Shown here: positions 15,429 to 17,338 of the stretch, in pieces
Layout: each line of letters starts with the position of its first letter
How positions within the stretch are numbered: the stretch's first letter is position 1
Source of the DNA: Candidatus Moraniibacteriota bacterium
Lineage (GTDB): Bacteria; Patescibacteriota; Minisyncoccia; Moranbacterales; UBA1568
Reading direction: 5' to 3'
Length of the DNA stretch: 41,377 nt
Assembly (NCBI GenBank): GCA_030648835.1
Contig: JAUSGT010000002.1
Location: 266,081 to 307,457 of the forward strand
Notes under the pieces: generated by a model
Database searches by the model: none
The model's input: only the letters and a program-made list of their open reading frames with translations
Told to the model about the DNA's origin: nothing
Translations under genes and position numbers: made by a program

Positions 15429-15479
15429 GCCATCTTAGCTTCCGCCCAAGGCGGACCAGCCTTGGGCTGGCAGTTGGTA
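15429..15479 (+). pseudogene. 5' fragment of tRNA-Thr(TGT) interrupted by a 30-bp palindromic insertion
   Basis: gccatcttagct + [30 nt] + cagttggta equals the first 21 nt of the tRNA at 15529. Confidence 0.75.
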
Positions 15480-15528: not shown

Positions 15529-15601
15529 GCCATCTTAGCTCAGTTGGTAGAGCAACGGTTTTGTAAACCGTGGGTCGTCGGTTCGAGTCCGACAGATGGC
15601 T
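15529..15601 (+). tRNA. tRNA-Thr(TGT)
   Basis: Cloverleaf: gccatct/agatggc acceptor, acggt-tTGTaa anticodon arm, GTTCGAGTC T arm. Confidence 0.96.
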
Positions 15602-15661
15602 CAAGTTTGTACTTTGATAAGTTATATAGTATAATACAAGTGACTATACGCCACTAGTATT

Positions 15662-16270
15662 ATGCCACGTAAAAAAATCACTTCTGGAGAAGAGCGTCTC
15701 GTAAGAGATCTTTATTTGAAAGACTTTACTGGACAGGAAGTTGCTACACAACTCAAGGTTTCTCTGAAACAAGTATACGATTCGTTACGTCGCCAAAATA
15801 TCCCTCGGAAAAGTCTACTTGAGCAAAACAGGTTACGGTTTCAAAAAAAGCCTCTCTCTTTTGTGTTTAGTGAAAAATTGTCATCAAAAGATAGAGAGTT
15901 GCTTGTAGCTGGGCTTATGCTCTATTATGGTGATGGGGCAAAGACAGGGAATACTGTTGACTTTGCCAACTCCGATCCAATGCTTCTTAAATTATTTCTC
16001 AAGTTTCTGAAAAATATTTGCGGTATTGATAATGAGAAGCTGCGGTTTTATCTATACTGCTTCTCTGATCAAAATAGTAATTCACTTATTCGTTATTGGT
16101 GCTCTCATTTGAGCGTTAAGCCGGGGCAATTCACAAAGCCCTATGTCCGCTTGACTCTCAATAAGGGTAAACGAACAATGACAAACGGAGTATTACATAT
16201 TCGTTATAGTGATAAGCGTTTGCTTGAAAAGATATTATTGCTCGGTCGTGAGTGGGCGAGTACTTTGTAA
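15662..16270 (+). CDS. free-standing HTH + LAGLIDADG-like endonuclease
   Basis: N-terminal HTH (GQEVATQLKVSLKQVYDSL), LAGLIDADG-like helix AGLMLYYGDG, FANSD..LLKLFLKFL; AT-richer than the flanks. Confidence 0.65.
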   Translation: MPRKKITSGEERLVRDLYLKDFTGQEVATQLKVSLKQVYDSLRRQNIPRKSLLEQNRLRFQKKPLSFVFSEKLSSKDRELLVAGLMLYYGDGAKTGNTVDFANSDPMLLKLFLKFLKNICGIDNEKLRFYLYCFSDQNSNSLIRYWCSHLSVKPGQFTKPYVRLTLNKGKRTMTNGVLHIRYSDKRLLEKILLLGREWASTL

Positions 16271-16274
16271 ATAT

Positions 16275-16558
16275 GGGTAGGTGGCGGAGTGGTCAATCGC
16301 AGCAGACTGTAAGATATTGCAGCTCTGAAAGGGGACTTTCAGATGAACTTTCTGGGATAACGGTGGAGGCTACGTTCTTATAAAAAAAGAATATGCGAAT
16401 ACCGTGGGAACCTCGATATCGTGTCGGGGAGCGCCGTAGAGACTAGATACCAGAGCACCTAGAACAGGTGAAGATATAGTCCATGCCGAAGAGAAATCCT
16501 CGGGTTATATGAAATCTGTCGCCTTCGGGCTTCGGGGGTTCGAATCCCTCCCTACCCA
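16275..16558 (+). tRNA. tRNA-Tyr(GTA), exons 16275-16310 and 16512-16558
   Basis: Joined exons give gggtagg/cctaccc acceptor, gcaga-ctGTAaa-tctgt anticodon arm, long variable arm and GGTTCGAATCC. Confidence 0.93.
16311..16511 (+). mobile_element. group I intron (201 nt, ORF-less) in the tRNA-Tyr anticodon
   Basis: 5' exon ends in U, which pairs with G in P1 (ctgtaa/ttgcag). Terminal G. R element agagacta and S element aagatatagtcc form P7. Confidence 0.93.
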
Positions 16559-16734
16559 CTAAATCAATAAAACGGGTCTTTATGGTCCGTTTTATTTATT
16601 TTGGTAGAGTAAGGATAGGGATTCGAAGGGTATTCTAAAAAGCAAACTGCTTTGCTTTTTAGAAACCCAGGCTCTGGAGGAGTCGCGGAGCCTCCGGCGA
16701 AGCGATGGGGGAGGAGGAATCCCTCCCTACCCAC
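16542..16734. repeat. 18-bp direct repeat of the tRNA-Tyr 3' end with an internal inverted copy
   Basis: gaatccctccctacccac at 16542 and 16717; agggattcgaa at 16617-16627 is inverted. Confidence 0.8.
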
Positions 16735-16784
16735 ATAATCTAAAACAACTCCCAACATAGGAGTTGTTTTAGTTTCTATAGACG

Positions 16785-16856
16785 TAGCCCCAAGGGGAAT
16801 CGGACCCCTGTTACCAGGATGAGAACCTGGTGTCCTAACCATTAGACGATGGGGCC
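16785..16856 (-). tRNA. tRNA-Glu(CTC)
   Basis: ggcccca/tggggct acceptor, ccagg-ttCTCat-cctgg anticodon arm; T-loop reads TCCGATT. Confidence 0.9.
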
Positions 16857-16862
16857 CTTCAG

Positions 16863-16933
16863 CAGGGGCGGTAGGAATCGAACCTACACAAACGGTTTTG
16901 GAGACCGTTGTACTACCACTATACGACGCCCCC
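16863..16933 (-). tRNA. tRNA-Trp(CCA)
   Basis: acggt-ctCCAaa-accgt anticodon arm; GGTTCGATTCC. Confidence 0.95.
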
Positions 16934-16998
16934 ATCTATCTCTCTAGTATATAATATTGTATCAAGTAAACCAAAACCCGCCAGTTGGCGGGAAGGAT

Positions 16999-17160
16999 CT
17001 ACTTGCTCTCGGTATGGGTCGCGTTCTTCTTGCAGAAGCGACAGTATTTACTCAGCGCAAGCTTCTCTTTCACCTTTTTCTTGTTACGCTTCGTGTAATG
17101 TGTGATACGGCTACACAGAGAACATTTCAGTTTTACCATGGTATCTTTAATTTGTCCCAT
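16999..17160 (-). CDS. rpmG: 50S ribosomal protein L33
   Basis: Manual translation MGQIKDTMVKLKCSLCSRITHYTKRNKKKVKEKLALSKYCRFCKKNATHTESK; two CxxC; not in the ORF track. Confidence 0.93.
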   Translation of the reverse strand: MGQIKDTMVKLKCSLCSRITHYTKRNKKKVKEKLALSKYCRFCKKNATHTESK

Positions 17161-17265
17161 ATCATTTTCAATAATTCATCCGTTTAAAAAGCTTTTTTAC
17201 TCTACTGGAAAATATCCCGAACGTCAACCCTCCCCCATCAAAGCTTCGAATAGTCGGACATCCTG

Positions 17266-17338
<73 letters not shown>

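Follow-up and report, generated by a model that had tools for sequence, protein, structure and literature searches.

The window analysed here, 41,377 nucleotides (nt) of the chromosome of a Candidatus Moraniibacteriota bacterium (contig JAUSGT010000002.1), contains an open reading frame (ORF) of 202 amino acids (aa) situated between tRNA-Thr(TGT) and a tRNA-Tyr gene that is interrupted by a group I intron. This ORF is probably a free-standing gene of the homing-endonuclease type, with tRNA-Tyr as its homing locus and with the intron as a linked, co-mobilised partner. The evidence consists of the fold of the predicted protein, the conservation of its motif, its linkage to tRNA genes, a presence/absence polymorphism among relatives, and the structure of the intron. 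The elements of the locus were as follows:

15529-15602, + strand: tRNA-Thr(TGT), the upstream neighbour (ARAGORN; Rfam tRNA, 72.8 bits)
15662-16270, + strand: free-standing gene for a helix-turn-helix (HTH) plus LAGLIDADG-like protein, 202 aa, tRNA-Tyr subfamily, intron-linked clade (ORF, relatives, model, tree)
16275-16310, + strand: 5′ exon of tRNA-Tyr(GTA), last nt being U35 (alignment with relatives)
16311-16511, + strand: ORF-less group I intron, 201 nt (Rfam, homologous introns, covariation)
16512-16558, + strand: 3′ exon of tRNA-Tyr, including the discriminator A (alignment with relatives)

The ORF stop ended at 16270, leaving a gap of 4 nt before tRNA-Tyr at 16275, and gene and intron, both at one tRNA gene, lay 40 nt apart. 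The original prediction, drawn from the letters of this stretch, had described an AT-rich, free-standing ORF between the two tRNA genes, ending 4 nt before a tRNA-Tyr that holds a group I intron with no ORF. The coordinates agreed with this description, the gene was not intron-encoded, the intron was ORF-less, and the G+C content of the gene was 0.39-0.40 versus 0.45-0.55 in the flanks. The genome carrying the window (G000; 1.01 Mb, 4 contigs, 99.84% complete) possessed 46 uninterrupted tRNA genes, tRNA-Tyr not among them, and the split gene, which default-mode ARAGORN overlooked because it is split, was the sole tRNA-Tyr (47 tRNA genes in total). Thus, the intron must splice for the cell to live.

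Predicted structure of the protein

Relatives of the protein at E ≤ 0.001 numbered 397 in a collection of 5.8 billion proteins, nearly all of them about 202 aa long, from Patescibacteria bins, and unnamed or annotated as hypothetical. An alignment of 30 relatives had a mean column identity of 62%, with the stretch MLYxGEGAK invariant. Profile searches recognised only the N-terminal HTH, and that weakly: Pfam gave only weak HTH matches (E 0.057-0.11), NCBIfam gave YlxM at 19.9 bits versus a cut-off of 80, and PHROGs gave a "DNA binding protein" at 8e-5, again with the HTH. Direct search of the PDB sequences returned no match, and a sequence profile search of the same set returned HTH repeats only. 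AlphaFold2 modelling was confident, with a predicted local distance difference test (pLDDT) score of 90.5 over the full length and of 93.8 when residues 63-202 were modelled separately. The following features were assigned within the gene:

15662-15802, + strand: three-helix HTH domain, residues 1-47 (VIA-align, weak HTH profile matches)
15854-16267, + strand: LAGLIDADG-like domain, residues 65-202 (domain-only model, VIA-align)
15899-15943, + strand: LAGLIDADG-type helix and motif, residues 80-94, ending MLYYGDGAK (alignment)
15932-15934, + strand: putative catalytic Asp91 (alignment column 91)

In structural comparison by VIA-align, residues 1-47 resembled HTH domains, including the DNA-binding domain of GcrA (Z 6.8) and Tc3 transposase (Z 6.0), and the whole model matched the TliVMA intein endonuclease (Z 9.1) and I-DmoI (Z 7.2). 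An exhaustive comparison with the domain-only model placed LAGLIDADG proteins in all nine top rows (Z 8.8-5.3). The best was the TliVMA intein endonuclease (Z 8.8, root mean square deviation 2.8 Å over 89 residues), followed by I-DmoI (7.3), E-DreI (6.7), WhiA (6.4, 5.8 and 5.7), I-Tsp061I (5.7), an intein endonuclease (5.6) and I-Vdi141I (5.3). Over both models, WhiA structures scored Z 6.6-5.7. Column 91 was E or D in all 115 non-gap family sequences, the window being one of two with Asp; G92 was present in 115/115 of the same sequences and K94 in 111 of 116 non-gap ones. The HTH-LAGLIDADG-like fold proposed in the original prediction was upheld by the structural matches, through the nine top rows, and by the conserved acidic residue, although Foldseek, considered below, gave no match at E ≤ 0.001. 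On the model, residues 65-202 are one divergent LAGLIDADG domain, "divergent" because the Z values are modest and the domain has an extra helix.

A two-copy prediction with residues 60-202 scored 0.76 versus 0.02 for the best control and passed; of proteins with solved structures, 20 of 30 pairs and 1 of 23 single chains attained the pass mark. The runs agreed in at least 94% of contacts, the partner pLDDT was at least 88, and the predicted interface consisted of residues 75-91, i.e., the LAGLIDADG motif helix. Homodimeric LAGLIDADG structures have already been solved, so this pass marks likeness to solved dimers and is not independent proof; the protein probably forms a homodimer, as judged from the models.

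Association of the family with tRNA genes

A profile search found members of the family in 89 of 401 sampled genomes of the phylum (about 22%; among those of high quality, 82 of 339), and a single genome had as many as seven. For analysis of the surroundings, 121 loci were taken, comprising the 60 best-scoring profile places, 59 species-representative loci and 2 in G000. Since L060 is the window and the proteins of L074, L075 and L076 are identical to those of L011, L003 and L024, taken as the same places, 117 were distinct. At 111 of these, the reading frame ended between -90 and +45 nt from the start of a tRNA on the same strand. The other six included three loci cut by a contig end, where nhmmer detected a partial intron-containing tRNA-Tyr, one (L017) with a split tRNA-Tyr missed by ARAGORN and found by nhmmer, and two with gaps of 105 nt and 137 nt. 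The stop codon fell within the tRNA in 49 of the 114 loci having a tRNA call, and in 21 loci it was the tRNA's own T8-A9-G10 position.

The partner tRNAs were Tyr, Thr(GGT), Thr(CGT), Thr(TGT), Ile(TAT), Ile(GAT), Gly(GCC), Trp, Phe, Ser, Leu, Val, Lys, Ala, Pro and Arg, and most paralogues adjoined intron-less tRNAs. A second, distant member of 207 aa was encoded in G000 itself (G000:C4:11951-12319; L061 1432-2055, minus strand, beside rbfA), between tRNA-Ala(GGC) and an intron-less tRNA-Arg(CCT), ending 11 nt before the latter. With 47 tRNA genes among roughly 1,070 genes, a number estimated from the genome length, about 4% of genes would adjoin a tRNA by chance. Adjacency in both G000 members and in the 111 distinct loci is therefore far above chance.

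The identity of the adjacent tRNA followed the protein phylogeny. On a tree of 62 proteins this label required 18 changes (minimum 17) versus a shuffled mean of 41.4, none of 200 shuffles being as low, and the tRNA-Tyr proteins formed one clade with a Shimodaira-Hasegawa-like approximate likelihood ratio (SH-aLRT) support of 99. These findings indicate that every branch of the family keeps to a single tRNA gene. Ten differing positions were fixed at ≥ 80% between the tRNA-Tyr and tRNA-Thr(GGT) branches; 100, 102, 132, 179 and 181 lie in predicted beta strands, and 104 and 184 flank strands. In LAGLIDADG enzymes, the beta sheet is the nucleic-acid-reading surface. As possible scars of break repair, repeats of the initial 14 nt of the neighbouring tRNA were sought and were present in 0 of 114 cases, versus 6 of 134 when the remaining tRNAs of these loci were used.

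Introns were also present at other family loci. Ten tRNA-Thr(GGT) loci carried, as read by eye, an intron of about 190-245 nt after U36 that was unrecognised by Rfam, which at E ≤ 0.01 confirmed group I introns in 5 of 19 submitted loci, including tRNA-Phe at L119 (67.2 bits) and tRNA-Thr(TGT) at L110 (81.1 bits). Intron-mode ARAGORN misnamed split tRNAs as Ser, Asp, His or Arg, and their exons were therefore re-read: tRNA-Tyr via the alignment, tRNA-Thr(GGT) in 10 loci and tRNA-Phe in 1 by eye. In a species of the same genus, G298, a paralogue (L092; G298:C19:1-1628) lay 5 nt ahead of tRNA-Thr(GGT), which there carries an intron of about 211 nt after U36, whereas tRNA-Thr(GGT) of the window (17265-17338) was uninterrupted and had no such gene. 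The tRNA genes occupied thus differ among species within one genus.

Two of these loci had further features. L104 (G284:C3) possessed three tandem 37-nt partial copies of the 5′-end of tRNA-Thr(GGT) between the family gene and the intron-split tRNA. At L123 (G334:C9), the gene adjoined tRNA-Pro(TGG) and a strong group I intron (RF00028, 93.7 bits) lay in the tRNA directly upstream of the gene, indicating that the intron-bearing partner can be the upstream neighbour.

Searches of the main text of published papers turned up no account of the protein family, nor of a group I intron in tRNA-Tyr of Patescibacteria. That some tRNAs of the candidate phyla radiation carry group I introns is a bare remark in the portion consulted of Lui et al. 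2021 (PMC8172020), and the corresponding excerpt of the tRNAscan-SE 2.0 paper mentions group I introns for tRNA-fMet and tRNA-Ile2 (PMC8450103).

The tRNA-Tyr group I intron

The Rfam model Intron_gpI (RF00028) matched 16300-16503 at 32.7 bits, under the gathering score of 50 (E 5e-6), and homologous tRNA-Tyr introns exceeded that score at L076 (60.7 bits) and L089 (55.1 bits). By nhmmer, the same intron-split tRNA-Tyr lay directly 3′ of the gene in 33 of 59 related loci. All 31 complete introns were preceded by CTGT, ending in U35 of the GUA anticodon, and had a final G before AAA(T/C)C; in our reading, a conserved GCAG near the intron 5′ end could pair with CUGU. Among the 46 pairs predicted from 30 aligned introns, 30 had compensatory changes on both sides, and the core stretches were invariant and appear to resemble those of small tRNA introns of IC3 type. 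Contigs of two metagenome runs (X2 and X21) omitted exactly 16311-16511, as would the intron-less tRNA-Tyr of related organisms, which fixes the boundaries.

A covariance model built here from the tRNA-Tyr intron (R1) scored the window intron at 198.7 bits and found introns of this type in 80 of 151 genomes of the class. At the 20 loci with high-scoring R1 matches outside G000 and G389, no family ORF was found within 1.5 kb on each side (less at contig ends). Introns of this type thus spread or persist largely without the gene. The gene-less loci included two tRNA-Tyr genes, three tRNA-Asn(GTT) genes by ARAGORN (more by our own reading), one tRNA-Asp gene and 23S rRNA.

Within the set L135-L151, from relatives in the class, introns closely resembling that of tRNA-Tyr occupied the equivalent position of tRNA-Asn(GTT) (L141, L143 and L149, by ARAGORN) and tRNA-Asp(GTC) (L139), and no family gene was close to them. 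G000 had a single further group I match (RF00028, 34.4 bits), at G000:C3:217-509, apparently in a 23S rRNA gene at the start of the contig.

Linkage of gene and intron among relatives

On a tree of 81 proteins, from which partial matches were excluded, 32 of the 34 intron-linked tRNA-Tyr proteins fell into one clade (SH-aLRT 86). The intron state required 2 changes versus a shuffled mean of 26.3, and none of 500 shuffles was as low. The intron-linked clade came from bins labelled Moranbacteria, Magasanikbacteria, Yanofskybacteria, Peregrinibacteria, Gracilibacteria, Saccharibacteria and Doudnabacteria, and the intron-free type also occurred in Moranbacteria. This distribution fits a gene-plus-intron unit with one or two origins and later movement from host to host. 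Comparison of the intron-linked (28 sequences) and intron-free (26) clades revealed 35 shared positions conserved at ≥ 80%, including beta-sheet residues, and a single fixed difference at the same threshold, F134/Y134.

Close relatives differed in the presence of both components. Two congeners, G376 and G298, and one genome from elsewhere in the order, G077, had an uninterrupted tRNA-Tyr about 60-150 nt after tRNA-Thr(TGT) with nothing between them, neither gene nor intron being present; the two tRNA genes are therefore normally adjacent, as had been claimed. The congener G524 had no tRNA-Tyr-type gene and no R1 intron match, and none of the three other genomes of the genus had a tRNA-Tyr-type gene. 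Both gene and intron were present in G389 of the same family and in G018 of a different family. The spacer before tRNA-Tyr in G298 resembles the last codons and stop of the window ORF, and a contig of X21 joins 15607 to 16258, a weak joint with a short side; the two observations are suggestive of an insert some 650 bp long. Joints seen in the metagenomes (skips of 201 and 650 nt) have short sides and 85% likeness and probably come from related organisms. Neither the contigs of the probable source sample nor those of three further ones included one from this strain that bridges the site without the gene.

Among 59 species-representative loci, gene plus intron occurred in 33 and the gene next to an uninterrupted tRNA-Tyr in 25, these making up the 58 tRNA-Tyr-type loci; the remaining one, L049, had tRNA-Tyr upstream and tRNA-Thr(GGT) downstream of the gene. 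The R1 search added intron-only alleles in G241 and G455, where tRNA-Thr(TGT) and tRNA-Tyr are 25-32 nt apart and tblastn found no remnant of the gene. With these, all four allele states of tRNA-Tyr exist: gene plus intron, gene only, intron only, and neither. In a sample of 151 genomes of the class, five had a tRNA-Tyr-type gene, G000 and G389 with the intron and G445, G478 and G480 with a more distant type, and a high-scoring tRNA-Tyr intron match was present in two of these five versus at least 2 of the 146 gene-less genomes. Gene and intron are thus enriched together yet separable. The expectation that they co-occur held in close relatives, where both are jointly present or absent, and in the one clade tied to the intron, but not throughout, since gene-only and intron-only alleles were both found.

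Proposed mode of spread and alternatives

From these observations we infer a nuclease activity, a target site and a direction of transfer. The protein would recognise DNA in or at the edge of tRNA-Tyr on chromosomes lacking the gene and make a double-strand break, and repair off the gene-bearing chromosome would copy in some 650 bp; the final four codons of the ORF, with its stop, would derive from the former spacer. The intron, lying 36 nt inside the tRNA, would be carried along by co-conversion, and gene and intron would thereby act as a linked two-part element in one clade. The HTH domain may add DNA contacts or may repress the gene's own promoter through a conserved palindrome described below.

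Several points weigh against this proposal. Pfam LAGLIDADG models did not match the 202-aa protein. The Z values, at most 9.1, are modestly over the background of 7-8 stated for VIA-align, and the domain carries one helix more than the canonical LAGLIDADG fold. Foldseek gave no PDB match at E ≤ 0.001 with the whole or the domain-only model; its top rows, OmpA-like domains with a template modelling score of about 0.3, were treated as meaningless. The shuffle tests overstate significance, because kin are not independent, and the conflict between protein tree and hosts is indicative only, because host labels of metagenome bins are unreliable. Strong purifying selection throughout the phylum could also fit a useful host function, and no RNA sequencing runs were listed for the locus. 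Nor does the proposal account for the way in which gene-bearing chromosomes with an uninterrupted tRNA-Tyr avoid cutting themselves.

An alternative is strict collaborative homing as in F-CphI and psbA, in which the endonuclease would cut the anticodon loop of intron-less tRNA-Tyr and the intron would shield the host copy. The original prediction had pictured such a collaborative unit, and its linkage component stood: gene and ORF-less intron share one tRNA gene at 40 nt, near relatives have both or neither, and one protein clade is always intron-linked. The anticodon stem-loop moreover reads as an inverted repeat into whose middle the intron is inserted, a symmetry that would agree with a homodimer, and a precedent has been published (excerpted text of PMC6083498). 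The shielding component was weakened. The 25 gene-only loci out of 58 adjoin uninterrupted tRNA-Tyr, the intron is found without the gene in G241 and G455, and most paralogues sit beside intron-less tRNAs. The single residue fixed between intron-linked and intron-free clades gives no sign of a different target, which argues against a cut site shielded by the intron alone. Strict collaborative homing is thus unlikely.

The region upstream of the gene bears on a second alternative. Two features were noted there:

15607-15635, + strand: promoter-like TTGTAC, 17 nt, TATAAT (read from the sequence)
15639-15655, no strand assigned: imperfect palindrome of 17 nt, downstream of the -10-like box and upstream of the ATG (hairpin scan)

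A consensus promoter scan reported no promoter upstream of the ORF. The -10-like GTATAAT was exact in 14 of 19 upstream regions of clade A, with a near variant in the remaining five, and this conservation suggests a promoter. A similar palindromic stretch was seen by eye at the same place in many relatives, and might serve the HTH protein as an operator or form a hairpin in the 5′ untranslated region. These features would also suit a domesticated, non-cutting DNA-binding protein like WhiA that regulates the tRNA operon or itself and is kept because it is useful. Such a regulator would agree with the HTH domain and the conserved palindrome, with the WhiA structures among the fold matches (Z 6.6-5.7) and with the strong sequence conservation. 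However, the family is patchy (89 of 401 genomes) and its tRNA-Tyr type is absent from the three other genomes of the genus, up to seven paralogues per genome each sit at a different tRNA, and the acidic residue is invariant (E or D, 115/115). The motifs of WhiA are not known to include this residue. A WhiA-like role is accordingly quite improbable.

Some LAGLIDADG proteins are maturases, one clade is strictly intron-linked and splicing of the sole tRNA-Tyr gene is essential, but an RNA-level helper, either a maturase that helps the tRNA-Tyr intron to fold or splice, or else a factor binding pre-tRNA, is most improbable, since the same subfamily occurs at intron-less tRNA-Tyr genes, G241 and G455 retain the intron without the gene, the 20 other loci with related introns have no family ORF within 1.5 kb on either side (less at contig ends), and the gene is not intron-encoded. 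The maturase role that had also been raised is, with gene-only and intron-only alleles both existing, unlikely as a primary function.

The proposal of a homing-endonuclease-type gene with a co-mobilised intron can tentatively be extended to the whole family, as one possibility among others. There may have been a phylum-wide radiation of tRNA-gene-specific LAGLIDADG endonucleases, sitting flush with the 5′ ends of their tRNA genes and repeatedly teaming with ORF-less introns, with the four tRNA-Tyr states surviving and with subfamilies often borrowing U8-A9-G10 of the tRNA as a stop codon. If true, the tRNA-Tyr locus would be a living series for the assembly of a mobile intron from a free-standing endonuclease and a passive ribozyme. 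Such an arrangement has so far come from a few phage cases, and here it would occur on bacterial chromosomes, at tRNA genes and in many tRNA-specific branches. With all intermediate allele states open to comparison, it would provide a natural test bed for collaborative homing versus hitchhiking, and the family may be a source of new sequence-specific nucleases. The findings also carry a warning for annotation, as tRNA-Tyr and other tRNAs in these genomes are missed by standard tRNA finders.

Other features near the locus

A terminator-like hairpin followed tRNA-Tyr:

16566-16596, + strand: terminator-like hairpin 3′ of tRNA-Tyr (hairpin scan)

Further downstream, a conserved element of about 100 nt (16600-16737; counterpart at L068 1620-1750) finished with 18 nt that repeat the 3′-end of tRNA-Tyr (16717-16734). 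In G298, of the same genus, this element (99 nt at 80% identity) followed tRNA-Glu(TTC) and ended in a copy of the 3′-end of that tRNA. It looks like a small element targeting tRNA 3′ ends. The 18-nt copy was considered as a homing scar and rejected, the occurrence of the same element at tRNA-Glu(TTC) indicating a separate element.

Upstream, at 15429-15479, a partial copy of the tRNA-Thr(TGT) 5′-end lay 100 nt before the real gene and consisted of 12 nt, a hairpin-rich insert of 30 nt, and 9 nt; L001 and L007 likewise had an additional tRNA-Thr 5′-end copy upstream. The block at 16784-17338, comprising tRNA-Thr(GGT), rpmG, tRNA-Trp and tRNA-Glu(CTC), was inverted relative to the congener G376, in which it shares the strand of tRNA-Tyr; the inverted order was common to the window and L002.

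Comparison with known systems

The papers cited in this section were consulted in part, and the comparisons refer to the parts consulted. F-CphI and the psbA intron of cyanophage S-PM2, the case termed collaborative homing (PMC6083498, PMC3984707), resemble the present pair in that gene and intron can move together. F-CphI is an Endo VII-type enzyme of a phage with a protein-coding target, whereas here the protein is of the HTH-LAGLIDADG type, on a bacterial chromosome and at a tRNA gene; in addition, gene-only and intron-only alleles exist here, and protection by the intron is indirectly disfavoured. The closest likeness to the hitchhiking version favoured above is trans-homing of the I-TevIII intron by T4 mobE (PMC2790892), in which a free-standing endonuclease mobilises a neighbouring non-autonomous intron. 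MobE, however, is an HNH enzyme acting at a phage ribonucleotide reductase gene, and the present system is predicted from sequence.

The gene of T4 SegB (PMC2330249), a homing endonuclease, is likewise free-standing and lies among clustered tRNA genes. Conserved tRNA sequence forms part of the SegB recognition site, and the enzyme drives its own inheritance together with that of the tRNA genes beside it. SegB is a single, phage-borne GIY-YIG gene, whereas the family described here is chromosomal and of LAGLIDADG type, with a separate subfamily for each tRNA gene, placed flush against the 5′ end of that gene. The introns of tRNA-Leu, tRNA-fMet, tRNA-Ile and tRNA-Arg in cyanobacteria and proteobacteria (PMC3984707) are likewise small, ORF-less and inserted in the anticodon loop after a U, but here the host is tRNA-Tyr, the insertion follows U35 and the organisms are Patescibacteria.

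Among structurally characterised proteins, I-CreI, I-CeuI, I-MsoI and single-chain I-DmoI have in common with the predicted protein a single LAGLIDADG domain in each chain, the conserved acidic residue, and a motif helix at the two-fold interface, which is a predicted one here. These enzymes are intron-encoded and have no N-terminal HTH, whereas the present protein lacks a Pfam match, has an extra helix and reaches Z values of only 4.5-7.3 with them. LAGLIDADG maturases are both intron-encoded and intron-dependent, and the present gene is neither. WhiA-type regulators have a near-universal, vertical distribution, whereas this family is scattered over 89 of 401 genomes.

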